From Escherichia coli (GTDB lineage: Bacteria; Pseudomonadota; Gammaproteobacteria; Enterobacterales; Enterobacteriaceae): a DNA stretch of 64,000 nt. The translations under genes were made by a program, and so were the position numbers. Below are positions 4,678 through 36,574 of the stretch, in pieces. Positions within the stretch are counted from its first letter, which is position 1; every line of letters starts with the position of its first letter. The notes under the pieces are model-generated. The model saw only the letters and a list, made by a program, of their open reading frames with translations. It ran no database searches and was not told where the DNA came from. Where the stretch lies: NCBI RefSeq assembly GCF_050920415.1, contig NZ_CP169309.1. One strand, given 5' to 3'.

Positions 4678-5197
4678 TCCTCGATTAATATCTAAGCCAA
4701 GCAGGATGCTTGGAAGTTCTGATATATTCTTATCGTTTTTCGGTATTTAAAACTGATTTTCGCTGGTTGCGAAAGCACGTGGTCGGGCACTGCGTTCACA
4801 CATGCAGGAGGGTGTGAAGTCAGCTTTTTTTCTGTGTATTCAGATGGCGTTCTGATTCTATAACGAGTTACGTGGACATCAGGGATGGAGAGAATAGGAA
4901 CGCCATCTTAATACATTTTCCCCGTTTATTTGATATATCTTCCGGATAAGGGATTAGGTCTGGTTTTTTATGTCATTCAATAACGCTCTTCTATACTGTA
5001 TACAATACTTTATCCTGGCAGTGTGTTTAAAACCTGAACTTATCCTTTGTTTCGTTTATAGACAGAAGGGTTAATATCGACTTATCATCAGCAGGATGGC
5101 AACAGATGTGTAAGCAGCTGGTCACCAGTTATACTTCAGTGGTACTTCTGAGTGCTTCTCTCCGTGAAATGATTATCATCCAGATGACAGGAGTAGA

Positions 5198-5476
5198 GTG
5201 AATATTGATGATATTTCCAGGTGCTCCAGCTTGTTGCAGCGTATTGAGGATGTTAATGCTGAACGAGCCAGGGCCTTTAGTCGTTTGACAGTTATATTTT
5301 CTACCCCTGATCGCCTTTCAGGAAAGAACATTGTTTTATTAAACAGTGATGCCATCCATAAGGTTTTTGAAGAGTTCATGGCTGCTAATTCAGAATTGCT
5401 GGCTCTTGTTGAGGAATACAACGAGATAGCCAGCCGTGTCGGTATGGATGAATTCAACGTCATACTTCGTGGATAA
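5198..5476 (+). CDS. Hypothetical protein (92 aa), GTG start with AGGAG RBS
   Basis: ORF preceded by AGGAG at 5187-5191 and followed by a strong terminator. Confidence 0.45.
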   Translation: MNIDDISRCSSLLQRIEDVNAERARAFSRLTVIFSTPDRLSGKNIVLLNSDAIHKVFEEFMAANSELLALVEEYNEIASRVGMDEFNVILRG

Positions 5477-5499
5477 AAACATGCTTCATATTTTCTGTT

Positions 5500-5524
5500 A
5501 GCTCGCTACGGCGAGCTTTTTTTG
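5500..5524 (+). terminator. Rho-independent terminator (agctcgc-tacg-gcgagct + T-run)
   Basis: 7-bp perfect stem, tetraloop, T-run of 8. Confidence 0.65.
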
Positions 5525-5657
5525 TATCTGAGCCACACCTGGCGCACATCAAAAACACAGAGCCTTTCAGGAGGTGCTTACGGGATTGTCAGTGTGACTT
5601 TCACTGTGGGCTGGTAACCATCTGGCGCAGGCTCGTCTACGCAAAGGAAAAGTCACG

Positions 5658-6083
5658 ATGTTAGGTATTTTCAAAAAGAAAACCCGCAAGGCCATCACAG
5701 AAGTGAAGAAGATGGAGAACCGTGATGCGGTGGAGGCGACCGTCTGGGGCGCATATTCCATTGCATATGCCGACGGCACCTGCGATGCGAAAGAAATCGC
5801 AGTACTGGAGAAAACTATTGCTGCGCTTCCTGCTTTTGCACCGTTCTCTGGTGAGATTGCCCAGATGAGCGCCAATATCCGCGCCCGTTATGAAGCGTCA
5901 CCGCGTAGTGCGAATGCGCATGCATTGCGTGAGCTGGCTGATGTGGCGGGGACAACTGAGGCGGTTGACGTGCTTTGCCTCTGTCTGGATATCGCTGATC
6001 AGGATGGCATTGGTCCGGATGAAGAAGCGCAGCTCAAGAAAATTGCACAGGCGCTTCAGTTACCACTGGAGCAGTATCTGTGA
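5658..6083 (+). CDS. TerB-like (tellurite-resistance TerB / DjlA N-terminal domain family) protein
   Basis: 141-aa helical protein whose acidic C-terminal motif (LCLCLDIADQDGIGPDEEAQLKKIAQAL) is typical of TerB-domain proteins. Confidence 0.55.
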   Translation: MLGIFKKKTRKAITEVKKMENRDAVEATVWGAYSIAYADGTCDAKEIAVLEKTIAALPAFAPFSGEIAQMSANIRARYEASPRSANAHALRELADVAGTTEAVDVLCLCLDIADQDGIGPDEEAQLKKIAQALQLPLEQYL

Positions 6084-6232
6084 AAAGTGCGGGCCTTGTG
6101 CTGGCTGCCATCCTGTTGTTTCTGGTAGTGGCAGTGGATTTCACTGGATGGCTGATGTCGGTACTGGCTGATGGTGTGCTGGTGGCGATGGTAACGGTCT
6201 TACTCTGGCCTTTACTTCGCAAATCTGAATAA
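6080..6232 (+). CDS. Possible small hydrophobic membrane protein (about 50 aa, GTG start overlapping the TerB-like stop)
   Basis: Unannotated frame reading VKSAGLVLAAILLFLVVAVDFTGWLMSVLADGVLVAMVTVLLWPLLRKSE; two hydrophobic stretches; start codon uncertain. Confidence 0.3.
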   Translation: MKSAGLVLAAILLFLVVAVDFTGWLMSVLADGVLVAMVTVLLWPLLRKSE

Positions 6233-6317
6233 ACAGCCTACAAAAGGTATCTGCGGGTACCTTTGATAAAGTTTTTTAGGGCCGCTGATGGTCCTTTTTA
6301 TTTACAGGAGAATAAAT

Positions 6318-6710
6318 ATGTCTGAACCCTTATCCGGTTCCGGCACTGCTGTGGCGCTCGGCGGGGCGACGGTATTCGGGCTGTTTACCGGGACGGATTT
6401 CGGGATTGTATTTGGTGCGTTCGCTGGTGCGTTATTTGTGGCAACAATGCCGCAGACACTTTCAGCCTGGCGTGTGGCTGCACATTTTCTGGTGTCCTTT
6501 ATTGTTGGTGTGCTTGGGGCCCGTGGTGTGGCCGGTTACATGGCGGAACGTATTGGGTTTAACAGTGCTTCCGTTGATGCGTTGTGTGCGGTCCTGGTGT
6601 CGGTGCTCTCAGTAAAAGTCCTGTCATTCATCCACCAGCAGGAGATTACATCACTGGTATCCGGTCTGTTCTCCCGTCAGCGTGGAGGAGGTGGTGGTAA
6701 TGACAAATAA
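6318..6710 (+). CDS. Putative holin (multi-TM membrane protein, Gly-rich C-terminus)
   Basis: ATG at 6318 preceded by AGGAG; about 3 hydrophobic helices; lies upstream of the endolysin. Confidence 0.55.
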   Translation: MSEPLSGSGTAVALGGATVFGLFTGTDFGIVFGAFAGALFVATMPQTLSAWRVAAHFLVSFIVGVLGARGVAGYMAERIGFNSASVDALCAVLVSVLSVKVLSFIHQQEITSLVSGLFSRQRGGGGGNDK

Positions 6711-6978
6711 TCTTCCAGGATTACTGAATGCGGCGTTATGTACGGTTATCGTACTGACGCTTTTTTTCTACCGCAGAAAAGAGTCCCGACACAAACCGCT
6801 GATATCGTGGTGCGCCTGGTGTCTGATGCTGTTGTATGCGATAACGCCGTTAAGTTATCTCTGTGGTCATCCGTTGCCGGCAGACTGGCTGGTAGTGATG
6901 CTGAACCTGGTGTTTGGTGTCATGGTAGTGCGTGCGCGCGGTAATGTTTCAAAAATTTTTGCTTTCCTGAGTGGCTGA
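6700..6978 (+). CDS. Putative holin/antiholin-like small membrane protein
   Basis: 92-aa hydrophobic protein (start MTNNLPGLL) overlapping the preceding gene's end and the endolysin start. Confidence 0.5.
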   Translation: MTNNLPGLLNAALCTVIVLTLFFYRRKESRHKPLISWCAWCLMLLYAITPLSYLCGHPLPADWLVVMLNLVFGVMVVRARGNVSKIFAFLSG

Positions 6979-7525
6979 TATGAAATCGAGAGATGAAATT
7001 TTTGATGAAATCCTCGGAAAAGAGGGGGGGTATGTCAGTCATCCTGACGATACAGGCGGAGCGACGAAGTGGGGAATTACTGAAAAAGTGGCGCGCGCGC
7101 ATGGTTACCGTGGTGATATGCGTGATTTGAGCCGCGGGCAGGCTCTGGAAATCCTTGAGGCAGACTATTGGTATGGACCTCGTTTTGACCAGGTGGCAAA
7201 CCTGTCTCCTGATATTGCTGCAGAACTGTGTGATACCGGGGTAAACATGGGGCCGTCGGTAGCCACAAAAATGCTTCAGCGCTGGCTGAATGTGTTTAAT
7301 CAGAAGGGAATGCTGTATCCGGACATAGTTACAGACGGGGGGATCGGGCCGCGAACCATTAATGCGTTACGTTCTTATCTGAAAAATCGCGGCAGGGATG
7401 GCGAACTGGTACTGGTGAAAGCCCTGAACTGTACGCAGGGTGAGCGTTATCTGGCGCTGGCAGAGAAACGCGAGGCTAACGAGTCGTTTGTCTATGGCTG
7501 GATGAAAGAGCGCGTTGGTTTATAA
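6971..7525 (+). CDS. Endolysin, glycoside hydrolase family 108 with C-terminal peptidoglycan-binding domain
   Basis: N-terminal EILGKEGGYVSHPDDTGGATKWGI motif characteristic of GH108 lysozymes. Confidence 0.85.
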   Translation: MADMKSRDEIFDEILGKEGGYVSHPDDTGGATKWGITEKVARAHGYRGDMRDLSRGQALEILEADYWYGPRFDQVANLSPDIAAELCDTGVNMGPSVATKMLQRWLNVFNQKGMLYPDIVTDGGIGPRTINALRSYLKNRGRDGELVLVKALNCTQGERYLALAEKREANESFVYGWMKERVGL

Positions 7526-7533
7526 ACTCATCG

Positions 7534-7558
7534 AAAAGGTCACTTCGGTGGCTTTTTT
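7534..7558 (+). terminator. Rho-independent terminator with UUCG tetraloop (aaaaggtcac-ttcg-gtggc + T-run)
   Basis: Stem with G-U wobble pairs, UUCG loop, T-run of 6, immediately after the endolysin stop. Confidence 0.5.
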
Positions 7559-7726
7559 ATTGTTCAAAAAACGAAAGAACGGAGGTACGTATGTACGCAC
7601 TGAAAAAGATTACGGTAACTGAAGATGGTCGTCAGTAGACTGGCCCCCTGAATCTCCAGACAACCAGTATCACTTAAATAAGTGATAGTCTTAATACTAG
7701 TTTTTAGACTAGTCATTGGAGAACAG

Positions 7727-8092
7727 ATGATTGATGTCTTAGGGCCGGAGAAACGCAGACGGCGTACCACACAGGAAAAGATCGCAATTGTTCAGCAGAG
7801 CTTTGAACCGGGGATGACGGTCTCCCTCGTTGCCCGGCAACATGGTGTAGCAGCCAGCCAGTTATTTCTCTGGCGTAAGCAATACCAGGAAGGAAGTCTT
7901 ACTGCTGTCGCCGCCGGAGAACAGGTTGTTCCTGCCTCTGAACTTGCTGCCGCCATGAAGCAGATTAAAGAACTCCAGCGCCTGCTCGGCAAGAAAACGA
8001 TGGAAAATGAACTCCTCAAAGAAGCCGTTGAATATGGACGGGCAAAAAAGTGGATAGCGCACGCGCCCTTATTGCCCGGGGATGGGGAGTAA
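7727..8092 (+). CDS. insC: IS2 transposase OrfA (InsC)
   Basis: Translation [41 protein letters not shown]... matches IS2 InsC. Confidence 0.9.
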
Positions 8093-8955
8093 GCTTAGTC
8101 AGCCGTTGTCTCCGGGTGTCGCGTGCGCAGTTGCACGTCATTCTCAGACGAACCGATGACTGGATGGATGGCCGCCGCAGTCGTCACACTGATGATACGG
8201 ATGTGCTTCTCCGTATACACCATGTTATCGGAGAGCTGCCCACGTATGGTTATCGTCGGGTATGGGCGCTGCTTCGCAGACAGGCAGAACTTGATGGTAT
8301 GCCTGCAATCAATGCCAAACGTGTTTACCGGATCATGCGCCAGAATGCGCTGTTGCTTGAGCGAAAACCTGCTGTACCGCCATCGAAACGGGCACATACA
8401 GGCAGAGTGGCCGTGAAAGAAAGCAATCAGCGATGGTGCTCTGACGGGTTCGAGTTCTGCTGTGATAACGGAGAGAGACTGCGTGTCACGTTCGCGCTGG
8501 ACTGCTGTGATCGTGAGGCACTGCACTGGGCGGTGACTACTGGCGGCTTCAACAGTGAAACAGTACAGGACGTCATGCTGGGAGCGGTGGAACGCCGCTT
8601 CGGCAACGATCTTCCGTCGTCTCCAGTGGAGTGGCTGACGGATAATGGTTCATGCTACCGGGCTAATGAAACACGCCAGTTCGCCCGGATGTTGGGACTT
8701 GAACCGAAGAACACGGCGGTGCGGAGTCCGGAGAGTAACGGAATAGCAGAGAGCTTCGTGAAAACGATAAAGCGTGACTACATCAGTATCATGCCCAAAC
8801 CAGACGGGTTAACGGCAGCAAAGAACCTTGCAGAGGCGTTCGAGCATTATAACGAATGGCATCCGCATAGTGCGCTGGGTTATCGCTCGCCACGGGAATA
8901 TCTGCGGCAGCGGGCTTGTAATGGGTTAAGTGATAACAGATGTCTGGAAATATAG
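8050..8955 (+). CDS. insD: IS2 transposase OrfB (InsD), DDE integrase-type
   Basis: 301-aa translation matches IS2 InsD; overlaps insC in the -1 frame as in IS2. Confidence 0.9.
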
Positions 8956-9236
8956 GGGCAAATCCAGTCAGGTTGAGGAAGTGCATGTCCTGGGGGGATA
9001 TGTATCGTATGGAGTTTTACCCGCGTAATACCCATCTGGCAGCAAAAATTGAGTATTGCCGGAACGGGAATATTTCATGTTTGCAGGTAGAGAAAACGGA
9101 TGAGGCTTATATCACTACGCTGAACGGCGATACGATGTCAGCGCCAATGATATAAGACAGTAATTCACCATTTGGATTGTCCGCTCCACCCAACATGTTG
9201 TTTCCTTAAGGTTCCTACACCACAAAGGGAACACTC

Positions 9237-11202
<1,966 letters not shown>

Positions 11203-11419
11203 TGACCAATAGCGGACATTAAAAATGGCGAAAAACGGCCAATAATCTTGGCGTTGACAACGATGCGTTGCATCTGTCGCGGCGACAGTAAAGCCCGGAA
11301 TGAAATGGCCAGATGTCGTACTCATACCAGTGAATAACAAGTAAAACCCCGGCGGCTGAAACAACCAAGGGGTTAACAGTGTAAATAAAACTGCCCATAT
11401 TGATGGGCAGCGCATGTAA

Positions 11420-11713
11420 TTATTGTGAGCAATAGACCCGAGCTTCAAGCGGAGTATAAATGCCTAAAGTAATAAAACCGAGCAATCCATTTACGAATGT
11501 TTGCTGGGTTTCAGTTTTAACAACTTTATCTGCGCCACCACAAATTTTGGCTGCATCGACAGTTTTCTTCTGACCAATTCCTGAAACGAAGAAATGATGA
11601 GTGATGGTTTCCTTCGGTGTTACTGTTGTAGGTTTGTTTTCAACTGTAAACGTCTGTTGAGCACATCCAGAGATAAGCAGCGCCAGTGTGAAAGTGAGTA
11701 GCGTTTTTTTCAT
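11420..11713 (-). CDS. bor: Bor lipoprotein (lambda Bor/Iss family)
   Basis: 97-aa translation with lipobox LLISGC, recognisably matching lambda Bor; minus strand between lysis region and cos as in lambda. Confidence 0.9.
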   Translation of the reverse strand: MKKTLLTFTLALLISGCAQQTFTVENKPTTVTPKETITHHFFVSGIGQKKTVDAAKICGGADKVVKTETQQTFVNGLLGFITLGIYTPLEARVYCSQ

Positions 11714-11937
11714 CGTGTGATTCCCGTTGTGTTTTTAAGTTTGGTGCATCGTATTTGTGGAAATTTAAACAAAACCTAAACAATGAGTTGAAATCTCATA
11801 TTGTTAATGTTTATTAAAGTATGCCAGATGTGCTGTATCTTTACTGTATACCCAGATTAACTATGGCCACAGCACCGACTGGTAACTCCTGTGTGGGAGT
11901 GCCGGCTACTGAGGCGGATCAAACCGGACGTTATGGT

Positions 11938-12348
11938 TTAGCGTGGAAAAATTTGAGTCGTGTTCTGGATGCTTTCGGTAAACAATAATGAGTTGTCAAA
12001 GGTATAGTAATATCTTTTGTGTTCGTGGATATTTGTAACCCATCGGAAAACTCCAGCTTTAGCCAGATTTACCCTGTATTCATGAAATGTGATTTCTCTT
12101 GATTTCAACTTATGAAGGTAAGTTTCTATAAGTCGCGTGTCTCTGCAAAAGCTAACATGAATAACATCATGGAAACCTTTTATTAACACCGTGTTATCGC
12201 TCTCAAATACAATGTGAATATTACCTGTGGCTAAATAGTAAATGTAATGTGAGACATTGTGGCGTTTTAGTTCAGAGTAAAACCGGTCACAGTTTAAATC
12301 TTTCCGCACTTGATCAAATATTTCTTTAAAAATGGCAACCTGAGCCAT
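11938..12348 (-). CDS. Uncharacterised protein (136 aa), AT-rich moron
   Basis: Minus-strand ORF in the bor-cos interval; AT-rich codon usage; no family recognised. Confidence 0.5.
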
Positions 12349-12907
12349 CAGTATCCCCTTGTATATGATATGAGGGGCGTAGTCTGCATGAGTGCTTTTA
12401 ATACTGCAATCTGGTCAGATGTCTTTATCGTATATTGATGATTATTGTCGGATAGTATGAGGTTTTCTCAACTCATGGAAATACCGGAAGGTGCGAAAAT
12501 TACTAAGTAAGAAGAGTTACATAAGCCCTTCATACAGTGAAGGGCTTATGTAATCTTAGAAATAAAAAACCGGTCATAGGGAGCTACACAGAACCGGTCG
12601 GCGAAGACCGCCAATACCACCCATGCATCGATGCAACATACTAATGACAATAGCTGCTATTGATGTAAATGCAATGTTATGCATCGACGAAAATAAAAAA
12701 CCGGCAGGGGAAATCCATTGAAGACTTGCCGGTGGCAAAAGTTGCCAATGCTTTTATAACCGTAGTCACAGAGTTACGAAGTGCAACACCGACTGCTGCT
12801 GGTATATGGATGAATGGCGTTTCAATGATGTGCATCATTCAAATCACAAATAGTATTGATACTTATTCTCGGTTTTGCGGGTCCTTTCCGGTGATCCGGC
12901 AGGCTAC

Positions 12908-12919
12908 GGGGCGGCGACC
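12908..12919 (+). other. cosN cohesive-end site (GGGCGGCGACCT), lambda type; cosB expected in the following ~180 bp
   Basis: 12-nt sequence GGGCGGCGACCT followed by AGCGGGTTTTCGCTATTTA, matching the lambda left end as recalled; lies just upstream of Nu1. Confidence 0.8.
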
Positions 12920-13597
12920 TAGCGGGTTTTCGCTATTTACGAGTTTTTTTGAGGTGATGGTTGTTGTTTTATCGTTTGATATATCTACTTGATAAGTAAT
13001 AAGAAAGAAAAATAAACACAACAACCTGATGATCTTTCTTATACGAAAAAGCATGTAAAATCAGAGGGTTTTACAAAAAACGTGGTTGTTGTATTGCTTT
13101 TTTGCCGGTGGTTTATGGAGGGGCTGTGGCCTTTTTATTGAATAAAAGCGACATGGCCTCCTCCATCGGTATCTCAGTACAGGCATTTGATAAATGGGGT
13201 GTTCCTCCTGTTGAGCGCCGGGGGAGAGAGGTTTTCTATGACGTTAAAACTGTACTGGAGATAGATCGCGAGCGACGTCAACAAAACCAGAAATCTTCAG
13301 GTGGTGAAAATGATCTTGAGGAAAGGCTACTTCAGGCCAGGGTTAACCTGACGGAAGAACAGGCTATTGCTCAGCGGTTAAAAAACCAGGTTGCAGAGCA
13401 TAAGGTGATTGATACAGCTTTCTCTATTTTTGCCCTGTCCCGGTTATCCGGAGAACTGGCATCTGTTTTGGACAGTATTCCGCTTTCGATGCAAAGAAAA
13501 TTCCCTGAATTGACAGGCAGACAATTGGCTTATCTAAAAGAGCTGGTTGCGAAGGGGGCTAATAAATGCGTTGAGTCCGCTGAAAAAATGAAGGAAT

Positions 13598-17310
<3,713 letters not shown>

Positions 17311-17330
<20 letters not shown>

Positions 17331-18630
17331 TCTCCCGCATATTGCCAGCATGGCCTTTAATGAGCCGCTGATGCTTGAACCCGCCTATGCGCGGGTTTTC
17401 TTTTGTGCGCTAGCAGGCCAGCTTGGGATCAGCCGCCTGACAGATGCGGTGTCCGGTGACAGCCTGACTGCCCCGGAGACACCCGCGACGCTGGCGTTAT
17501 CTGGTGATGATGACGGACCACGACAGGCCCGCAGTTATCAGGTCATGAACGGCATCGCCGTGCTGCCGGTTTCCGGCACGCTGGTCAGCCGGACGCGGGC
17601 GCTGCAGCCGTATTCGGGGATGACCGGTTACAACGGCATTATCGCCCGTCTGCAACAGGCTGCCAGCGATCCGATGGTGGACGGCATTCTGCTCGATATG
17701 GACACGCCCGGCGGGATGGTGGCGGGGGCATTTGACTGCGCTGACATCATCGCCCGTGTGCGTGACATAAAACCGGTATGGGCGCTTGCCAACGACATGA
17801 ACTGCAGTGCAGGTCAGTTGCTTGCCAGTGCCGCTTCCCGGCGTCTGGTCACGCAGACCGCCCGGACAGGCTCCATCGGCGTCATGATGGCTCACAGCAA
17901 TTACGGTGCAGCGCTGGAGAAACAGGGCGTGGAAATCACGCTGATTTACAGCGGCAGCCATAAGGTGGATGGCAACCCCTACAGCCATCTTCCGGATGAC
18001 GTCCGGGAAACACTGCAGTCCCGGATGGATGCAACCCGCCAGATGTTTGCGCAGAAAGTGTCGGCATATACCGGCCTGTCCGTGCAGGCTGTGCTGGATA
18101 CCGAGGCTGCAGTGTACAGCGGTCAGGAGGCCATTGATGCCGGACTGGCTGATGAACTTGTTAACAGTACCGATGCGATCACCGTCATGCGTGATGCACT
18201 GGATACACGTAAATCCCGTCTCTCAGGAGGGCGAATGACCAAAGAGACTCAATCAACAACTGTTTCAGCCACTGCTTCGCAGGCTGACGTTACTGGCGTG
18301 GTGCAAGCGACGGAGGGCGAGAACGCCAGCGCTGCGCAGCCGGACGTGAACGCGCAGATCACCGCAGCGGTTGCGGCAGAAAACAGTCGCATTATGGGGA
18401 TCCTCAACTGTGAGGAGGCTCACGGACGCGAAGAACAGGCATGCGTGCTGGCCGAAACCCCCGGTATGACCGTGGAAACGGCCCGCCGTATTCTGGCCGC
18501 AGCACCACAGAGTGCACAGGCGCGCAGTGACACTGCGCTGGATCGTCTGATGCAGGGGGCACCGGCGCCGCTGGCTGCAGGTAACCCGGCATCTGATGCC
18601 GTTAACGATTTGCTGAACACACCAGTGTAA
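17311..18630 (+). CDS. C: Head maturation protease/scaffold C (GTG start with GGAGGAG RBS); Nu3 scaffold encoded in-frame in its 3' portion
   Basis: 439-aa translation from GTG 17311 (VTAELRNLPHIASMAFNEPLMLEP...) matches lambda gpC; the ORF-track start at 17176 lies within B. Confidence 0.9.
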
Positions 18631-18639
18631 GGGATGTTT

Positions 18640-18972
18640 ATGACGAGCAAAGAAACCTTTACCCATTACCAGCCGCTGGGCAACAGTGACCCGGCTCATA
18701 CCGCAACCGCGCCCGGCGTATTGAGTGCGAAAGCGCCTGCAATGACCCCGCTGATGCTGGACACCTCCACCCGTAAGCTGGTTGCGTGGGATGGCACCAC
18801 CGACGGTGCTGCCGTTGGCATTCTTGCAGTTGCTGCTGACCAGACCAGCACCACACTGACGTTCTACAAGTCCGGCACGTTCCGTTATGAGGATGTGCTC
18901 TGGCCGGAGGCTGCCAGCGACGAGACGAAAAAACGGACCGCGTTTGCCGGAACGGCAATCAGCATCGTTTAA
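18640..18972 (+). CDS. D: Head decoration protein D
   Basis: [12 protein letters not shown]... matches lambda gpD (110 aa). Confidence 0.9.
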
Positions 18973-18990
18973 CTTTACCCTTCATCACTA

Positions 18991-19014
18991 AAGGCCGCCT
19001 GTGCGGCTTTTTTT
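18991..19014 (+). terminator. Hairpin plus T-run in the D-E intergenic region
   Basis: ggccgc-ctgt-gcggc stem followed by TTTTTTT. Confidence 0.4.
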
Positions 19015-22603: not shown

Positions 22604-23028
22604 ATGTTCCTGAAAACCGAATCATTTGAACATAACGGTGTGACCGTCACGCTTTCTGAACTGTCAGCCCTGCAGCGCATTGAGCATCTCGCCCTGATGA
22701 AACGGCAGGCAGAACAGGCGGAGTCAGACAGCAACCGGAAGTTTACTGTGGAAGACGCGCCATCAGAACCGGCGCGTTTCTGGTGGCGATGTCCCTGTGG
22801 CATAACCATCCGCAGAAGACAAAGCTGCCGTCCATGAATGAAGCCGTTAAACAGATTGAGCAGGAAGTGCTTACCACCTGGCCCACGGAGGCAATTTCTC
22901 ATGCTGAAAACGTGGTGTACCGGCTGTCTGGTATGTATGAGTTTGTGGTGAATAATGCCCCTGAACAGACAGAGGACGCCGGGCCCGCAGAGCCTGTTTC
23001 TGCGGGAAAGTGTTCGACGGTGAGCTGA
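22604..23028 (+). pseudogene. G: Tail assembly chaperone G, disrupted by a 2-nt insertion near 22757-22760
   Basis: Two overlapping ORFs (22604..22837 and 22783..23028) each carry part of the lambda G sequence; reading switches frame at GAAGACGCGCCATC. Confidence 0.75.
23004..23010 (+). other. Programmed -1 ribosomal frameshift slippery heptamer GGGAAAG (G to G-T fusion)
   Basis: GGGAAAG at the 3' end of G with the T reading frame opening at this point, as in lambda. Confidence 0.8.
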
Positions 23029-23444: not shown

Positions 23445-25998
23445 ACCGGTAGGCGATCTGGTCGTTGATTTAAGTCTGGATGCGGCCAGATTTGACGAGC
23501 AGATGGCCAGAGTCAGGCGTCATTTTTCCGGTACGGAAAGTGATGCGAAAAAAACAGCGGCAGTCGTTGAACAGTCGCTGAGCCGACAGGCGCTGGCTGC
23601 ACAGAAAGCGGGGATTTCCGTCGGGCAGTATAAAGCCGCCATGCGTATGCTGCCTGCACAGTTCACCGACGTGGCCACGCAGCTTGCAGGCGGGCAAAGT
23701 CCGTGGCTGATCCTGCTGCAACAGGGGGGGCAGGTGAAGGACTCCTTCGGCGGGATGATCCCCATGTTCAGGGGGCTTGCCGGTGCGATCACCCTGCCGA
23801 TGGTGGGGGCCACCTCGCTGGCGGTGGCGACCGGTGCGCTGGCGTATGCCTGGTATCAGGGCAACTCAACCCTGTCCGATTTCAACAAAACGCTGGTCCT
23901 TTCCGGCAATCAGTCGGGTCTGACGGCAGATCGCATGCTGGTCCTGTCCAGAGCCGGGCAGGCGGCAGGGCTGACGTTTAACCAGACCAGCGAGTCACTC
24001 AGCGCACTGGTTAAGGCGGGGGTAAGCGGTGAGGCTCAGATTGCGTCCATCAGCCAGAGTGTGGCGCGTTTCTCCTCTGCATCCGGCGTGGAGGTGGACA
24101 AGGTCGCTGAAGCCTTCGGGAAGCTGACCACAGACCCGACGTCGGGGCTGACGGCGATGGCACGCCAGTTCCATAACGTGACGGCGGAGCAGATTGCGTA
24201 TGTTGCTCAGTTGCAGCGTTCCGGCGATGAAGCCGGGGCATTGCAGGCGGCGAACGAGGCCGCAACGAAAGGGTTTGATGACCAGACCCGCCGCCTGAAA
24301 GAGAACATGGGCACGCTGGAGACCTGGGCAGACAGGACTGCGCGGGCCTTCAAATCCATGTGGGATGCGGTGCTGGATATTGGTCGTCCTGATACCGCGC
24401 AGGAGATGCTGATTAAGGCAGAGGCTGCGTTTAAGAAAGCAGACGACATCTGGAATCTGCGCAAGGATGATTATTTTGTTAACGATGAAGCGCGGGCGCG
24501 TTACTGGGATGATCGTGAAAAGGCCCGTCTTGCGCTTGAAGCCGCCCGAAAGAAGGCTGAGCAGCAGACTCAACAGGACAAAAATGCGCAGCAGCAGAGC
24601 GATACCGAAGCGTCACGGCTGAAATATACCGAAGAGGCGCAGAAGGCTTACGAACGGCTGCAGACGCCGCTGGAGAAATATACCGCCCGTCAGGAAGAAC
24701 TGAACAAGGCACTGAAAGACGGGAAAATCCTGCAGGCGGATTACAACACGCTGATGGCGGCGGCGAAAAAGGATTATGAAGCGACGCTGAAAAAGCCGAA
24801 ACAGTCCGGCGTGAAGGTGTCTGCGGGCGATCGTCAGGAAGACAGTGCTCATGCTGCCCTGCTGACGCTTCAGGCAGAACTCCGGACGCTGGAGAAGCAT
24901 GCCGGAGCGAATGAGAAAATCAGCCAGCAGCGCCGGGATTTGTGGAAGGCAGAAAGTCAGTTCGCGGTACTGGAGGAGGCGGCACAACGTCGCCAGCTGT
25001 CCGCACAGGAGAAATCCCTGCTGGCGCATAAAGATGAGACGCTGGAGTACAAACGCCAGCTGGCTGCACTTGGCGACAAGGTTACGTATCAGGAGCGCCT
25101 GAACGCGCTGGCGCAGCAGGCGGATAAATTCGCACAGCAGCAACGGGCAAAACGGGCCGCCATTGATGCGAAAAGCCGGGGGCTGACTGACCGGCAGGCA
25201 GAACGGGAAGCCACGGAACAGCGCCTGAAGGAACAGTATGGCGATAATCCGCTGGCGCTGAATAACGTCATGTCAGAGCAGAAAAAGACCTGGGCGGCTG
25301 AAGACCAGCTTCGCGGGAGCTGGATGGCAGGCCTGAAGTCCGGCTGGAGTGAGTGGGAAGAGAGCGCCATGGACAGTATGTCGCAGGTAAAAAGTGCAGC
25401 CACGCAGACCTTTGATGGTATTGCACAGAATATGGCGGCGATGCTGACCGGCAGTGAGCAGAACTGGCGCAGCTTCACCCGTTCCGTGCTGTCCATGATG
25501 ACAGAAATTCTGCTTAAGCAGGCAATGGTGGGGATTGTCGGGAGTATCGGCAGCGCCATTGGCGGGGCTGTTGGTGGCGGCGCATCCGCGTCAGGCGGTA
25601 CAGCCATTCAGGCCGCTGCGGCGAAATTCCATTTTGCAACCGGAGGATTTACGGGAACCGGCGGCAAATATGAGCCAGCGGGGATTGTTCACCGTGGTGA
25701 GTTTGTCTTCACGAAGGAGGCAACCAGCCGGATTGGCGTGGGGAATCTCTACCGGCTGATGCGCGGCTATGCCACCGGTGGTTATGTCGGTACACCGGGC
25801 AGTCTGGCTGACAGCCGGTCGCAGGCGTCCGGGACGTTTGAGCAGAATAACCATGTGGTGATTAACAACGAAGGCACGAACGGGCAGATAGGGCCACAGG
25901 CGCTGAAGGCGGTTTATGACGTAGCCCGTAAGGCGGCAATGGATGTTGTGACCGGGCAGATGCGCGATGGTGGTCTGTTCTCCGGAGGTGGACGATGA
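23437..25998 (+). CDS. H: Tail tape measure protein H
   Basis: 853 aa, same length as lambda gpH, coiled-coil-rich translation. Confidence 0.95.
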   Translation: MAEPVGDLVVDLSLDAARFDEQMARVRRHFSGTESDAKKTAAVVEQSLSRQALAAQKAGISVGQYKAAMRMLPAQFTDVATQLAGGQSPWLILLQQGGQVKDSFGGMIPMFRGLAGAITLPMVGATSLAVATGALAYAWYQGNSTLSDFNKTLVLSGNQSGLTADRMLVLSRAGQAAGLTFNQTSESLSALVKAGVSGEAQIASISQSVARFSSASGVEVDKVAEAFGKLTTDPTSGLTAMARQFHNVTAEQIAYVAQLQRSGDEAGALQAANEAATKGFDDQTRRLKENMGTLETWADRTARAFKSMWDAVLDIGRPDTAQEMLIKAEAAFKKADDIWNLRKDDYFVNDEARARYWDDREKARLALEAARKKAEQQTQQDKNAQQQSDTEASRLKYTEEAQKAYERLQTPLEKYTARQEELNKALKDGKILQADYNTLMAAAKKDYEATLKKPKQSGVKVSAGDRQEDSAHAALLTLQAELRTLEKHAGANEKISQQRRDLWKAESQFAVLEEAAQRRQLSAQEKSLLAHKDETLEYKRQLAALGDKVTYQERLNALAQQADKFAQQQRAKRAAIDAKSRGLTDRQAEREATEQRLKEQYGDNPLALNNVMSEQKKTWAAEDQLRGSWMAGLKSGWSEWEESAMDSMSQVKSAATQTFDGIAQNMAAMLTGSEQNWRSFTRSVLSMMTEILLKQAMVGIVGSIGSAIGGAVGGGASASGGTAIQAAAAKFHFATGGFTGTGGKYEPAGIVHRGEFVFTKEATSRIGVGNLYRLMRGYATGGYVGTPGSLADSRSQASGTFEQNNHVVINNEGTNGQIGPQALKAVYDVARKAAMDVVTGQMRDGGLFSGGGR

Positions 25999-26324
25999 AA
26001 ACCTTCCGCTGGAAAGTGAAACCCGGTATGGATGTGGCTTCGGCCCCTTCCGTCAGGAAGGTGCGCTTTGGTGATGGCTATTCCCAGCGTGCGCCTGCCG
26101 GGCTGAATGCCGACCTGAAAACGTACAGTGTGACGCTTTCCGTGACCCGGGAGGAGGCCCGGCATCTGGAGTCGTTTCTGGCAGAGCACGGGGGCTGGAA
26201 GGCCTTTCTGTGGACGCCGCCTTATGGTTACAGGCAGATAAAGGTGACCTGCGCAAAATGGTCGTCGCAGGTCAGTATGTTGCGTGTTGAGTTCAGCGCA
26301 GAGTTTAAACAGGTGGTGAACTGA
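25995..26324 (+). CDS. M: Tail tip protein M
   Basis: 109 aa, matches lambda gpM. Confidence 0.9.
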   Translation: MKTFRWKVKPGMDVASAPSVRKVRFGDGYSQRAPAGLNADLKTYSVTLSVTREEARHLESFLAEHGGWKAFLWTPPYGYRQIKVTCAKWSSQVSMLRVEFSAEFKQVVN

Positions 26325-27022
26325 TGCAGGATATCCGGCAGGAAACACTGAATGAATGCACCCGTGCGGAGCAGTCGGCCAGCGTGGTGCTCTGGGAAAT
26401 CGATCTGACAGAGGTCGGTGGAGAACGTTATTTTTTCTGTAATGAGCAGAACGAAAAAGGTGAGCCGGTCACCTGGCAGGGGCGACAGTATCAGCCGTAT
26501 CCCATTCAGGGGACGGGATTTGAACTGAACGGCAAGGGCAGTGCTGCCCGTCCGACACTGACGGTCTCTAACCTGTACGGCATGGTCACCGGGATGGCGG
26601 AAGATCTGCAGAGTCTGGTTGGCGGAACGGTGGTCCGGCGTAAGGTTTACGCCCGTTTTCTGGATGCGGTGAACTTCGTCAACGGAAACAGAGACGCCGA
26701 TCCGGAGCAGGAGGTGATCAGCCGCTGGCGCATCGAGCAGTGCAGCGAACTGAGCGCGGTGAGTGCCTCCTTTGTACTGTCCACGCCGACGGAAACGGAT
26801 GGCGCTGTTTTTCCGGGACGTATCATGCTGGCCAACACCTGCACCTGGACCTATCGCGGTGACGAGTGCGGTTATAGCGGTCCGGCTGTCGCGGATGAAT
26901 ATGACCAGCCAACGTCCGATATCACGAAGGATAAATGCAGCAAATGCCTGAGCGGTTGTAAGTTCCGCAATAACGTCGGCAACTTTGGCGGCTTCCTTTC
27001 CATTAACAAACTTTCGCAGTAA
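26324..27022 (+). CDS. L: Tail tip protein L
   Basis: 232 aa, matches lambda gpL including the C-terminal Cys cluster. Confidence 0.9.
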   Translation: MQDIRQETLNECTRAEQSASVVLWEIDLTEVGGERYFFCNEQNEKGEPVTWQGRQYQPYPIQGTGFELNGKGSAARPTLTVSNLYGMVTGMAEDLQSLVGGTVVRRKVYARFLDAVNFVNGNRDADPEQEVISRWRIEQCSELSAVSASFVLSTPTETDGAVFPGRIMLANTCTWTYRGDECGYSGPAVADEYDQPTSDITKDKCSKCLSGCKFRNNVGNFGGFLSINKLSQ

Positions 27023-28370: not shown

Positions 28371-31300
28371 ATGGGTAAAGGCAGCAGTAAGGGGCATACC
28401 CCGCGCGAAGCGAAGGACAACCTGAAGTCCACGCAGCTGCTGAGTGTGATCGATGCCATCAGCGAAGGGCCGGTTGAAGGTCCGGTGGATGGATTAAAAA
28501 GCGTGCTGCTGAACAGTACACCTGTGCTGGACAGTGAGGGGAATACCAATATCTCCGGCGTCACGGTGGTGTTCCGGCCGGTGAGCAGGAGCAGACACCG
28601 CCGGAGGGGTTTGAATCCTCCGGCTCCGAGACGGTGCTGGGTACGGAAGTGAAATACGACACGCCGATCACCCGCACCATTACGTCTGCAAACATCGACC
28701 GTCTGCGCTTTACCTTCGGTGTACAGGCACTGGTGGAAACCACCTCAAAGGGTGACAGGAATCCGTCGGAAGTCCGCCTGCTGGTTCAGATACAACGTAA
28801 CGGTGGCTGGGTGACGGAAAAGGACATCACCATTAAGGGTAAAACCACTTCACAGTATCTGGCCTCGGTGGTGGTGGATAACCTGCCGCCGCGCCCGTTC
28901 AGTATCCGGATGCGCAGGATGACGCCGGACAGCACCACAGACCAGCTGCAGAACAAAACGCTCTGGTCGTCATACACTGAAATCATCGATGTGAAACAGT
29001 GCTACCCGAACACGGCACTGGTTGGCGTACAGGTGGACTCGGAACAGTTCGGCAGTCAGCAGGTGAGCCGTAATTATCATCTGCGCGGGCGCATTCTGCA
29101 GGTGCCGTCGAACTATAACCCGCAGACGCGGCAATACAGCGGTATCTGGGACGGAACGTTTAAACCGGCATACAGCAACAACATGGCCTGGTGTCTGTGG
29201 GATATGCTGACCCATCCGCGCTACGGCATGGGGAAACGTCTTGGTGCGGCGGATGTGGATAAATGGGCGCTGTATGTCATCGGCCAGTACTGCGACCAGT
29301 CAGTGCCGGACGGCTTTGGTGGCACGGAGCCGCGCATCACCTGTAATGCGTACCTGACCACACAGCGCAAGGCGTGGGATGTGCTCAGTGATTTCTGCTC
29401 GGCGATGCGCTGTATGCCGGTATGGAACGGGCAGACGCTGACGTTCGTGCAGGACCGACCGTCGGATAAGGTGTGGACCTATAACCGCAGTAATGTGGTG
29501 ATGCCGGATGATGGCGCGCCGTTCCGCTACAGCTTCAGCGCCCTGAAGGACCGCCATAATGCCGTTGAGGTGAACTGGATTGACCCGGACAACGGCTGGG
29601 AGACGGCGACAGAGCTTGTTGAAGATACGCAGGCCATTGCCCGTTACGGTCGTAATGTCACGAAGATGGATGCCTTTGGCTGTACCAGCCGGGGGCAGGC
29701 ACACCGCGCCGGGCTGTGGCTGATTAAAACGGAACTGCTGGAGACGCAGACCGTGGATTTCAGCGTGGGTGCTGAAGGGCTTCGCCATGTACCGGGCGAT
29801 GTCATTGAAATCTGCGATGATGACTATGCCGGTATCAGCACCGGTGGTCGCGTGCTGGCGGTGAACAGCCAGACCCGGACGCTGACGCTCGACCGTGAAA
29901 TCACGCTGCCATCCTCCGGTACCACGCTGATAAGCCTGGTTGACGGAAGTGGCAATCCGGTCAGCGTGGAGGTTCAGTCCGTCACCGACGGCGTGAAGGT
30001 AAAAGTGAGCCGTGTTCCTGACGGTGTTGCTGAATACAGCGTATGGGGGCTGAAGCTGCCGACGCTGCGCCAGCGACTGTTCCGCTGCGTGAGTATCCGT
30101 GAGAACGACGACGGCACGTATGCCATCACCGCCGTGCAGCATGTGCCGGAAAAAGAGGCCATCGTGGATAACGGGGCGCACTTTGACGGCGAACAGAGTG
30201 GCACGGTGAATGGTGTCACGCCGCCAGCGGTGCAGCACCTGACCGCAGAAGTCACTGCAGACAGCGGGGAATATCAGGTGCTGGCGCGCTGGGACACGCC
30301 GAAGGTGGTGAAGGGCGTGAGCTTCCTGCTTCGCCTGACCGTGGCAGCGGATGACGGCAGTGAGCGGCTGGTCAGCACGGCCCGGACGACGGAAACAACA
30401 TACCGCTTCAGGCAGCTGGCGCTGGGGCGGTACACGCTGACAGTCCGGGCGGTAAATGCGTGGGGGCAGCAGGGCGATCCGGCATCGGTATCGTTCCGGA
30501 TTGCCGCACCGGCAGCGCCGTCGCGGATTGAGCTGACGCCGGGCTATTTTCAGATAACCGCCACGCCGCATCTTGCGGTTTATGACCCGACGGTACAGTT
30601 TGAGTTCTGGTTCTCGGAAAAGCGGATTACCGATATCAGGCAGGTTGAAACCACAGCCCGCTATCTTGGTACGGCGCTGTACTGGATAGCCGCCAGTATC
30701 AATATCAAACCGGGCCATGATTATTACTTTTATATCCGCAGTGTGAACACCGTTGGCAAATCGGCATTCGTGGAGGCTGTTGGTCAGCCGAGTGATGATG
30801 CTTCCGGCTATCTGGATTTTTTCAAAGGAGTGATAGGGAAAACACACCTGGCTCAGGAGCTGTGGACGCAGATTGATAACGGTCAGCTTGCGCCTGACCT
30901 GGCTGAAATCAGGACGTCCATTACGGATGTCAGCAATGAAATCACACAGACCGTCAATAAGAAACTGGAAGACCAGAGTGCAGCGATCCAGCAGATACAG
31001 AAGGTTCAGGTTGATACAAATAATAACCTGAACAGCATGTGGGCTGTGAAGCTGCAGCAGATGCAGGACGGACGCCTTTATATCGCGGGTATCGGTGCCG
31101 GTATTGAGAACACCCCTGACGGCATGCAGAGTCAGGTGCTGCTGGCGGCGGACAGGATTGCGATGGTTAATCCTGCGAATGGCAACACAAAACCGATGTT
31201 TGTTGGTCAGGGCGATCAGATATTCATGAACGACGTGTTCCTGAAGCGCCTGACGGCCCCCACCATTACCAGCGGCGGCAATCCCCCGGCCTTTTCCCTG

Positions 31301-31849
31301 ACACCAGACGGAAAGCTGACCGCTAAAAATGCGGATATCAGTGGCAGTGTGAATGCGAACGCCGGGACGCTCAATAATGTCACGATTAATGAGAACTGTC
31401 AGATTCTGGGGAAACTGTCAGCTAATCAGATTGAAGGCGATATTGTTAAAACGGTGGGTAAGGCTTTCCCCCGTGACTCCCGGGCACCGGAGCGGTGGCC
31501 GTCAGGGACCATTACCGTCAGGGTTTATGACGATCAGCCTTTTGACCGGCAAATTGTCATTCCGGCGGTGGCATTCAGCGGTGCCAGACATGAGAGAGAG
31601 CATAATGACATTTATTCATCATGCCGTCTGATAGTGCGGAAAAACGGTGCTGAAATTTATAACCGTACCGCGCTGGATAATACGCTGATTTATACCGGTG
31701 TGATTGATATGCCAGCGGGTCGCGGTCACATGACGCTGGAGTTTTCGGTATCAGCGTGGCTGGTGAATGACTGGTATCCCACGGCAAGCATCAGCGATTT
31801 GCTGGTTGTGGTGATGAAGAAATCCACAGCCGGTATCAGTATCAGCTGA
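28371..31849 (+). pseudogene. J: Central tail fibre / host-specificity protein J, disrupted by a 1-nt frameshift near 28578; C-terminal receptor-binding region appears divergent from lambda J
   Basis: N-terminal 93-aa ORF (28371..28652) matches the J N-terminus; the rest (28634..31849) continues in another frame. Confidence 0.8.
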
Positions 31850-31907: not shown

Positions 31908-34492
31908 ATGGCAGTAAAGATTTCAGGCGTGCTGAAAGACGGTGCAGGTAAACCGGTACAGAACTGCACCATTCAGCTGAAAGCAAAACGTAACAGTACC
32001 ACGGTGGTGGTGAACACGGTGGCCTCAGAAAATCCGGATGAAGCCGGGCGTTACAGTATGGACGTTGAGTACGGCCAGTACGGTGTCATCCTGCTGGTTG
32101 AAGGTTTTCCGCCGTCACATGCCGGCACCATCACCGTGTATGAAGATTCTGAGCCGGGGACGCTGAATGATTTTCTCGGTGCCATGACGGAGGATGATGC
32201 CCGTCCGGAGGCACTGCGCCGTTTTGAACTGATGGTGGAAGAGGTGGCGCGTAACGCGTCCGCAGTGGCACAGAACACGGCAGCCGCGAAAAAATCCGCC
32301 GGCGATGCCGGAACATCTGCCCGTGAGGCGGCAACCCATGCGACTGATGCTGCAGGCTCAGCACGCGCCGCCAGCACGTCCGCCGGACAGGCTGCGACGT
32401 CAGCACAGGAAGCATCTTCCGGCGCAGAAACAGCCTCAGCAAAGGCCGCTGAGGCATCAAAAAGTGCTGCCGCTGCAGAGTCCTCAAAAAGCGCGGCGGC
32501 CACCAGTGCCGGTGCCGCGAAAACGTCAGAAACGAATGCGGCAGCGTCACAACAATCAGCCGCCACGTCTGCATCCACCGCGACCACGAAAGCGTCAGAA
32601 GCTGCCACGTCAGCCAGGGATGCGGCGGCCTCAAAAGAGGCGGCAAAATCATCAGAAACGAGCGCAGCCTCGAGCGCCGGTAGTGCAGCTTCCTCGGCAA
32701 CGGCGGCAGGAAATTCCGCGAAGGCGGCAAAGACGTCTGAGACGACGCCAGGTCTTCTGAAACGGCAGCGGAACAGAGTGCCTCCGCAGCAGCAGGCTCA
32801 GAAACTGCCGCTGCATCATCGTCCCGTGAGGCGTCAGTTAAAGCGGAGGAGGCATCAGCCAGTGCCACCGCCGCCGGAAAATCGGCAGAAAGTGCCGCAT
32901 CGTCCGCTTCAGCAGCCACAACGAAGGCTGGCGAAGCCACTGAACAGGCCACTGCAGCAGTGAGGTCTGCTTCCGCTGCGAGGACATCCGAGACGAACGC
33001 GAAAGCGTCGGAAACCCGTGCAGAATCTTCAGAAACGGCTGCCGTATCGTCCGCCAGTTCGGCGGCGTCATCAGCATCATCGGCGTCAGCTTCAAAAGAT
33101 GAGGCGGCAAGGCTGGCGTCAGAGGCGCAGGGCAGTGCCACGACGGCATCCGCGAAGGCGACAGAGGCAGCTGGCAGTGCGACAGCGGCAGCACAGAGCA
33201 AAAGCACGGCAGAATCCGCGGCAACGCGCGCCGAGACTGCGGCAAAACGGGCGGAGGATATTGCGTCTGCCGTGGCGCTTGAGGATGCGAGCACGACGAA
33301 AAAGGGGATAGTCCAGCTCAGCAGTGCAACCAACAGCACTTCCGAGTCACTGGCGGCAACACCAAAGGCCGTAAAAGCCGCCTGTGAGAATGCTGAGAAA
33401 CGACTGCAGAAAGATAAGAACGGTGCGGATGTCCCCGACAAAGACACCTTTACGAAAAATATTGGTGCCTGCCGTGCCTTCGGTGGGGCCGTAAGCACAA
33501 CGACAGGAGACTGGACGACCGCACAGTTTATCGGGTGGCTGGATTCTCAGGGCGCATTTAACCACCCATACTGGATGTGCAAGGGCTCCTGGTCTTACGG
33601 TAATAATAAAATCATCACGGATACGGGCTGCGGAAATATTCATCTCGCCGGCGCTGTCATTGAGGTGATGGGGATAAAGTCAGCGATGACGATCCGCATA
33701 ACCACACCGACAACATCCAGCGGAAGTGGAACGGCGAATGCGCAGTTTACCTATATTAATCATGGTGATGGTTATTCCCCTGGCTGGCGTCGTGACTACA
33801 ACACGAAAAACAAGCCACCGGCCTTTGCGCTGGGAAAAACCGGGGAAACGCTCGCCGATACAGATGCCGTCGCCTGGAACCTGGACAGTGGCGCTTATTG
33901 TGCACAGGATGGTGGCGCATCATCCTTAATTCTTCATTTTAATACAGGGGAAGGCAGCTGCCCCGCGGTCCAGTTTCGGGTGAATTACCGGAATGGCGGG
34001 ATATTTTACCGCTCCGCCCGTGATGGCTATGGCTTTGAGGCGGACTGGGAGCGTCTGTTCACGACAACGGGCGGGACCCTGGAAGGTGCTGTGGGTATCG
34101 GTGCACAGAATACGCTGGGCGGCCATTCACTTGCGCTGGGGAGGGGCGACACAGGCCTGAAACAAAACGGCGACGGTAATCTTGATGTTTACGCCGGTAA
34201 CGCACGTGTAATGCGCTTTACAAACGGCAGCATTCAGGTCAGTAAAGGGCTGAATGTGTCCGGGCGCGTTAATCCTTCCGATTACAGTAATTTTGATATC
34301 CGCTATGTCAGGGATATCCGGCTGGGTACGCGTGTTGTTCAGGGCATGCAAAAAGGCGTGACGTATGAGAAATCCGGCCATGTCATTACGGGGCTTTGTC
34401 TTGTCGGGGATGCTGATGGCGATAACTCAGCGGTTTACCGGCCGGTGCAAAAATACATAAACGGCACATGGTTTAACGTATCGCAGGTATAA
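31908..34492 (+). pseudogene. stf: Side tail fibre protein Stf, disrupted by a 1-nt frameshift near 32747 within the Ala/Ser/Thr-rich repeat region
   Basis: N-terminus MAVKISGVLKDGAGKPVQNCTIQLKA... and the conserved GIVQLSSATNSTSESLAATPKAVKAA motif lie in different frames; genuine repeat sequence continues in the other frame across 32741. Confidence 0.75.
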
Positions 34493-35290: not shown

Positions 35291-36574
35291 ATGGATTTCC
35301 AGTTATATTCGCTCGGCGCAGCGTTAGTGTTTCATGAAATATTTTTTCCTGAATCATCAACGGCAATGGCGTTAATTCTGGCAATGGGAACCTACGGTGC
35401 AGGTTATGTGGCGCGTATTGTCGGAGCATTTATTTTCGGCAAAATGGGCGACAGAATCGGGCGTAAAAAAGTGCTCTTTATTACCATCACTATGATGGGG
35501 ATCTGTACCACCTTAATTGGTGTGCTGCCGACCTATGCACAAATTGGTGTGTTTGCGCCAATTTTGCTGGTGACGCTGCGTATTATTCAGGGGCTGGGGG
35601 CAGGCGCGGAAATTTCCGGTGCCGGTACGATGCTGGCGGAATATGCGCCAAAAGGTAAGCGCGGAATTATCTCCTCATTTGTTGCTATGGGGACTAACTG
35701 CGGAACCTTGAGCGCAACGGCAATCTGGGCCTTTATGTTCTTCATTCTCAGTAAAGAGGAACTGTTGGCGTGGGGATGGCGTATACCGTTCCTGGCGAGC
35801 GTTGTCGTGATGGTCTTTGCTATCTGGTTGCGTATGAATCTGAAAGAAAGCCCGGTCTTTGAGAAGGTTAACGACAGCAACCAACCGACAGCAAAACCTG
35901 CACCTGCTGGTAGCATGTTCCAGAGCAAATCCTTCTGGCTGGCAACAGGGCTGCGTTTTGGTCAGGCTGGTAACTCAGGTTTAATTCAGACTTTCCTTGC
36001 AGGCTATTTAGTGCAGACGTTATTGTTTAACAAAGCAATTCCAACAGATGCATTGATGATCAGTTCGATTCTCGGCTTTATGACCATTCCGTTCCTTGGT
36101 TGGTTATCCGATAAAATTGGTCGCCGGATCCCGTATATTATTATGAATACCTCTGCGATTGTGCTGGCGTGGCCAATGCTTTCTATCATCGTAGATAAAA
36201 GCTATGCCCCGAGCACCATTATGGTTGCACTGATTGTGATTCATAACTGTGCGGTGCTGGGATTATTTGCTCTGGAAAACATTACCATGGCAGAAATGTT
36301 CGGCTGTAAAAATCGCTTTACCCGGATGGCCATTTCTAAAGAAATTGGTGGTCTTATCGCTTCCGGTTTTGGTCCTATCCTGGCGGGTATTTTCTGCACC
36401 ATGACGGAATCCTGGTATCCGATCGCCATTATGATCATGGCATATTCAGTGATTGGTTTAATCTCTGCGCTGAAAATGCCAGAAGTGAAAGACCGTGATT
36501 TAAGTGCACTGGAAGATGCCGCGGAAGATCAACCGCGTGTTGTAACAGCTGCGCAACCTTCAAGAAGTCTGTAA
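35291..36574 (+). pseudogene. ydfJ: MFS transporter YdfJ, 5'-truncated by the prophage insertion (prophage right junction about 35285-35290)
   Basis: 427-aa ORF lacking the first TM region of the family; in-frame stop immediately upstream of the ATG; same arrangement as Qin-interrupted ydfJ in K-12. Confidence 0.8.

Follow-up and report, generated by a model that had tools for sequence, protein, structure and literature searches.

A complete IS2 element in a predicted pseudogene of an Escherichia coli lambdoid prophage

A complete copy of the insertion sequence IS2 interrupts a small gene of a lambdoid prophage in the window, by which we mean the whole 64,000-nucleotide stretch of Escherichia coli contig NZ_CP169309.1 that was analysed. 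The account that explains the locus best, and that we hold to be very probably correct, is that an intact IS2 entered by transposition and duplicated five bases of its target, that the gene it entered was already dead, that the lesions of this gene were acquired stepwise, and that the arrival of IS2 was most likely of neutral effect. Within this account the identity of the element, its boundaries, the duplication, the empty site, the reading frames and the order of events were computed. The locus had been noticed in a preliminary description of the window, which proposed a complete IS2 flanked by a GTCAG duplication, a recent transposition, and a short open reading frame (ORF) split by the element.

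Base counting gives exactly 1,331 bp between the two GTCAG repeats, which places the element at 7636-8966 on the + strand. The features of the insertion are listed below, with the basis for each in brackets.

7631-7635, no strand: left copy of the target-site duplication, GTCAG (base counting; single GTCAG at the empty site of a relative)
7636-8966, + strand: complete IS2 of the IS3 family, 1,331 bp (99.9% identical over its full length to IS2 copies annotated by PGAP)
7636-7677, + strand: left inverted repeat (IRL), imperfect, 42 bp, starting TAGACTGGCCCCC (gapped alignment)
7727-8092, + strand: orfA/insC, 121 aa, HTH_Tnp_1 (protein identical to K-12 InsC1; PF01527, E 1.8e-19)
8044-8050, + strand: A6G window (AAAAAAG) for the programmed -1 frameshift that gives the OrfAB transposase (sequence; role according to PMC3299598)
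8050-8955, + strand: orfB/insD, 301 aa, DDE integrase core (protein identical to K-12 InsD1; Pfam HTH_21, rve and rve_3)
8926-8966, + strand: right inverted repeat (IRR), imperfect, 41 bp, finishing GGGGCAAATCCA (gapped alignment; PMC3299598)
8967-8971, no strand: right copy of the target-site duplication, GTCAG (base counting and BLAST of the empty site)

Judged on its sequence, the window copy is an intact IS2 in which every sequence-level defining feature is present. It is 1,331 bp long, exceeds the threshold of 95% nucleotide identity to a reference IS2, and has imperfect inverted repeats of 42 and 41 bp with a right end in ...CA, a 5-bp duplication on both sides that is single at the relative's empty site, and an overlapping orfA (HTH) and orfB (DDE/rve) in 0/-1 phase with an A6G slippery window. 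The 42- and 41-bp ends, the overlapping ORFs, the A6G frameshift window and the mechanism are as described for IS2 (PMC3299598). When 7636-8966 was used as a megablast query on 5,426 complete E. coli genomes, places with at least 80% query cover were returned in 4,058 of them, and the full-length matches at 99.9% identity are annotated as "IS3-like element IS2 family transposase"; the copy in the sister strain carries the PGAP label "programmed frameshift".

Compared with IS2A of K-12 (NC_000913 381260-382590), 1326 of 1331 bases are identical (99.6%), with no indels and five substitutions, at window positions 7667, 8241, 8307, 8535 and 8541, all of which are silent. InsC and InsD of the window copy are both open and identical in protein to InsC1 and InsD1 of K-12. 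The element had been called an exact IS2 with intact insC and insD; the intact genes are confirmed, and exactness holds for the length and for the proteins, but not base by base. Alignment to the IS2 reference, which the preliminary description had put forward as a check, shows the termini and the inverted repeats of 42 and 41 nt to be those of K-12 IS2A. In the gapped alignment of the two ends the repeats give 31 matching columns and one gap, and the termini read TAGACTGG... on the left and ...AAATCCA on the right. An ungapped comparison of the ends, with 15/45 matches, proved to be an artefact of the 42/41-nt length difference that the gapped alignment resolved. The substitution at 7667 is an A-to-G variant at position 32 of the IRL relative to K-12; IRL and IRR already disagree in the column concerned, and the same base is found in the copies of the sister strain.

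The GTCAG direct repeat is exactly 5 bp, with no extension to 6 bp or more, and the probability that 5 bp agree by chance is about 1/1024. No second copy of the IS2 left end was found elsewhere in the window. The route of entry, taken from what is established for the family, would have been copy-out/paste-in transposition with a figure-of-eight and a minicircle as successive intermediates, the GTCAG duplication resulting from cleavage of the target with a 5-bp stagger. The copy is probably competent for transposition, as its sequence suggests; that the insertion is there testifies only to earlier activity of a parent copy.

In order to find the empty site, we removed IS2 and one GTCAG from the window and used the reconstructed site, 501 bases long, as a query. 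One genome, that of E. coli MFDS1022581 (NZ_CP169399.1), matches 501/501 bases at 100%, and ten further genomes match positions 1-402 of the reconstructed site at 98.5-100%. When the locus of MFDS1022581 was compared by BLAST with the window, it aligned in two segments, 99.98% and 99.7% identical, and both segments overlap on exactly GTCAG (L001 6232-6236, NZ_CP169399.1), as expected if the single GTCAG of this sister strain corresponds to the two copies at 7631-7635 and 8967-8971. The duplication that had been proposed is thereby upheld. In the 7.6 kb upstream of IS2 there is 1 mismatch between MFDS1022581 and the window, and window positions 1-36492 are collinear with the sister prophage, IS2 being the only large difference. 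When a 200-bp probe for the left junction was run against the 5,426 complete E. coli genomes, none of them reached 80% coverage. The phage collection held no close IS-free relative of the site, and the best match in it was an 83% identical orthologue in phage phiSTEC1575-Stx2k.

On these comparisons, the insertion is real, simple, strain-specific and recent. It is taken to be recent because the junction is missing in all of the genomes searched, because a copy of IS2 in the sister strain differs by 1 nt, and because the sister prophage is collinear. The recent transposition suggested earlier therefore agrees with the absence of the junction from complete genomes and with the empty site of the sister strain. 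The IS2 junction also provides a strain-specific marker that distinguishes this strain from the near-identical MFDS1022581.

The gene that IS2 entered lies directly 3' of the GH108 endolysin gene, and the IS2 junction falls exactly after its codon 15. Its remains, and those of a second insertion in it, are distributed as follows.

7582-7586: GGAGG ribosome-binding site of the 93-aa gene
7591-7635, + strand: 5' fragment, codons 1-15, of the 93-aa PHROG 33497 gene (intact orthologues are a 282-nt CDS)
8972-9135, + strand: middle fragment, codons 16 to about 70, with the older +1 G frameshift (alignment)
8992-8997, + strand: run of six G (G6; intact alleles have G5), a +1 frameshift older than both IS insertions (DNA alignment)
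9132-9135 and 11260-11263: ACGA duplication of the ISEc62-like element
9136-11259, + strand: ISEc62-like element of the IS21 family, 2,124 bp, with TG...CA ends (99.9% identical to ISEc62 annotated by PGAP)
11264-11337, + strand: 3' fragment, codons about 70 to stop

Comparison with IS-free prophages, also suggested in the preliminary description, allowed the interrupted gene to be rebuilt as the 93-aa gene of PHROG 33497. The element does lie in a small ORF, as had been proposed, but the 15 + 18 codons on its two sides are the frameshift-truncated remnant of this 93-aa gene; the identity of the gene, the prior +1 G frameshift and the second IS in the same gene had been missed. For both the sister strain and strain 357900, which is IS-free, PGAP annotates a "hypothetical protein, frameshifted" after the endolysin, and in more distant relatives and in phage phiSTEC1575-Stx2k an intact 282-nt (93-aa) gene occupies the same position. 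The G6 run shifts the frame after codon 23 and leaves an ORF of 33 codons. This frameshift is common to at least ten independent IS-free complete genomes, and is therefore a real mutation of the lineage that predates both IS insertions. With both IS elements and the extra G taken out, the window encodes a 93-aa protein that is 99% identical (one residue different) to the intact G5 allele WP_160454477.1 of strain Ceylon31. Intact orthologues match the PHROG 33497 profile at positions 1-95 with E values of 1e-50 to 1e-54. As it stands, the window copy is broken by the frameshift and by two IS elements, and from this reading it is a pseudogene member of PHROG 33497, a family annotated as of unknown function. 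The locus is accordingly better annotated as one 93-aa pseudogene with a frameshift and two nested IS events than as several short ORFs.

The 93-aa protein has no match in Pfam or NCBIfam, and PHROGs places it in a single family of unknown function; about 30 clusters of this family are found in Enterobacterales, all of them named "hypothetical". A sequence-profile search of the PDB with the protein returned only noise. Its AlphaFold model is confident (pLDDT 87.8) and all-beta, with seven strands and a C-terminal helix; a fold search of the PDB with this model gave no match (best E 0.49), and the matches in BFVD are only uncharacterised small proteins of diverse phages.

The second insertion in the gene was revealed by the ten genomes that match the reconstructed site only to position 402. 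It is the ISEc62-like element, which splits the gene at about codon 70, 166 bp beyond IS2, and is common to the window and MFDS1022581. Its ends are TGTCAGCGCCAA and TTGGCGTTGACA, and by Pfam it encodes IstA (rve, Mu-transpos_C_2) and IstB (IstB_IS21, AAA+). The TG...CA termini, the pair of istA and istB, and the short duplication place it in the IS21 family. The PGAP-annotated copy of ISEc62 has the same TG...CA ends, istA and istB and is 99.9% identical, but a 1-nt deletion near 10257 of the window truncates IstA to 348 of 390 aa, such that an intact 390-aa IstA is lacking. This copy is therefore probably non-autonomous, as predicted from its reading frame, unless the missing base in istA is a fault of the assembly. 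In the window the ORF of istB is open, whereas the annotation of the relative's copies gives it as frameshifted.

The order of the three lesions follows from parsimony across the relatives. The +1 G frameshift, which is also present in IS-free genomes, would have arisen first in the 93-aa gene; the ISEc62-like element, present in two strains, would then have entered at about codon 70; and IS2, present in the window strain only, would have entered last, after codon 15. Because its target was already a pseudogene, we infer that the IS2 insertion was most likely selectively neutral.

The host of these elements is a lambdoid prophage of about 48 kb at the Qin locus, where the Qin prophage of K-12 is integrated, with rspB on one side and a truncated ydfJ on the other. 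The right boundary of the prophage (about 35291-36574) abuts the 5'-truncated ydfJ, and in the relative the left boundary adjoins rspB. The gene order starts with int-xis, followed further on by cI/cro-like genes and, further on again, by RusA, Q, a methyltransferase, a TerB-family gene, two holins and the GH108 endolysin. After the endolysin come the 93-aa gene, bor and a DUF1398 gene (both on the minus strand), Nu1-like and gpA-like terminase genes, and lambda-like head and tail genes. Two features border the 93-aa gene on its 5' side.

6971-7525, + strand: GH108/PG_binding_3 endolysin, last gene of the lysis cassette (Pfam; PGAP annotation of the 99.98%-identical relative)
7528-7551, + strand: terminator-like hairpin and T-run between the endolysin and the 93-aa gene (sequence scan)

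The lysis cassette as a whole spans 6288-7525 and consists of Phage_holin_8, Phage_holin_3_7 and then the endolysin; Rz/Rz1-type spanin genes are not annotated in any of the relatives. Directly upstream of the holins, at 5658-6232 in the late region, are a TerB-family (tellurite-resistance-like) gene and a DUF3927 gene, named from the annotation of the 99.98%-identical relative. The layout downstream, in which the endolysin is followed by a hairpin and then by the 93-aa gene with its own strong GGAGG ribosome-binding site, is moron-like.

Elsewhere in the prophage there are further differences from the sister. The gpJ gene (28371-31849) has one base fewer than the intact gpJ of the sister, through an indel at 28575, and is frameshifted after about 68 aa, with a long ORF resuming at 28634; either true decay of the prophage or a fault of the assembly may account for this indel. 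Additional single-base indels relative to the sister prophage occur at 32744, 16736, 22756-22757 and 26159/26165, in tail-fibre, portal and other structural genes. The portal gene is flagged by PGAP as frameshifted in the relative, and the portal ORF of the window (15729-17330) is open. Mismatches to the sister prophage cluster at 13000-18999 and 25000-26999, where there are 4 to 33 per kb compared with 0-1 elsewhere, a pattern suggestive of mosaic recombination that affected the terminase-portal-protease and tape-measure regions.

IS2 separates the lysis cassette from the terminase genes, as the preliminary description had it, and is situated 110 bp past the endolysin stop and about 4.1 kb ahead of the small terminase ORF (Nu1-like, 13102), in the orientation of the late genes. 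Lambdoid phages antiterminate their late transcription through Q, and this prophage has a Q gene upstream. By analogy, late transcription here is probably Q-antiterminated as well, with polarity damped; reading through both the hairpin at 7528-7551 and a 2.1-kb IS would imply as much, and we infer that strong polarity is absent. An alternative is that IS2 acts as a polar block, in which Rho-dependent termination within the element would cut transcription from the lysis genes into the terminase and structural genes and would help to lock the prophage in place. The position of IS2 between the endolysin gene and the Nu1-like gene, in the same orientation as both, is what such a block would need, and other apparent lesions (gpJ, tail fibre) are found in the same prophage. 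Classical IS2 insertions are polar in a Rho-dependent manner, the polarity being relieved by rho mutations, according to Yarulin and Gorlenko 1985 as cited in PMC12095673. However, a terminator-like site inside IS2 was looked for on the + strand and none was detected, transcription already has to cross the hairpin at 7528-7551, an IS21-family element of 2.1 kb, and bor and DUF1398, which are antisense to it, and the Q gene upstream argues for antitermination of the late transcript. We therefore consider a polar block to be improbable.

An activating role for IS2 is also unlikely from the sequence of the junction. The promoter scan of 7300-9400 detected no sigma-70-like sites. Fusion promoters formed by an outward -35 element of an IS and a -10 element in the flank have been reviewed (PMC9330008); for such an IS2-borne hybrid promoter, inspection by eye found no -10-like hexamer 16-18 bp from the "TGGAAA" of the IRR. 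An Rfam scan of 5000-13500 returned nothing.

Three independent lesions (the frameshift, the ISEc62-like element and IS2) have accumulated within the 283 bp of a single gene. It could be a late-region accessory gene, moron-like, that is harmful to the lysogen, such that its inactivation was selected, or else the site could be a post-terminator hot spot for IS elements; we give this pair of ideas only slender credence. The hot-spot idea found no support in hits H36-H38, in which the match spans an extra 300 nt, as the extra DNA there is intergenic and the gene is intact. Some relatives, such as E. coli R1 (NZ_CP031706.1, L011 727-1101), have about 310 bp of additional DNA between the endolysin and an intact 93-aa gene.

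It is also conceivable that IS2 was precisely excised from the sister lineage, for example with promotion by IEE, and was not gained in the window lineage. A comparison of two strains alone does not give the direction of change, and IEE can precisely excise IS3-family elements according to a preprint (bioRxiv 10.1101/2023.06.07.543989). Nevertheless, 11/11 other genomes with this allele of the locus are without IS2, the junction was found in 0/5,426 genomes, and insertion is established to be much more frequent than precise excision, which makes loss from the sister lineage very unlikely. Scarcely credible, finally, is an assembly artefact or a product of homologous recombination between two IS2 copies: the sister genome has 20 IS2 places on the chromosome and 11 on a plasmid, and such repeats often lead to misassembly, but misjoining or recombination would not give a perfect 5-bp duplication with contiguous flanks, and the flanks here are collinear with the IS-free relative over 7.6 kb and 27.5 kb.

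The gain of an intact IS2 by an already dead gene is thus the reading that we retain. Beyond adding 1.3 kb to the late operon, which must be transcribed and packaged along with it, the insertion most likely has no effect. In itself the insertion is of little importance, as IS2 is among the best-characterised bacterial insertion sequences and IS elements in resident prophages are commonplace. The layered lesions of the 93-aa gene, however, make a small, clear example of stepwise prophage decay.

Among known copies, IS2A of K-12 resembles the window copy in its length of 1,331 bp, its termini, its 42/41-bp repeats, its A6G window and its 5-bp duplication, which is ATTAC/ATTAC in its own case; it differs by the five silent substitutions, one of them in the IRL, and the site of the window copy is new. 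An IS2 copy of MFDS1022581 (NZ_CP169399.1 1496096-1497426, L008) is 1 nt from the window copy, at window position 8307. That strain has the same strain background, the same prophage and the same ISEc62-like insertion, and its prophage differs in having the empty GTCAG site. Studies of polarity and antitermination made use of classical IS2 insertions, in phage lambda and in the gal operon. Like the insertion described here, they lie inside a phage or operon transcription unit with antitermination factors, whereas in the window the target, an accessory gene of a resident prophage, was dead beforehand. IS2 at this locus is therefore a known kind of element at a previously unrecorded site.
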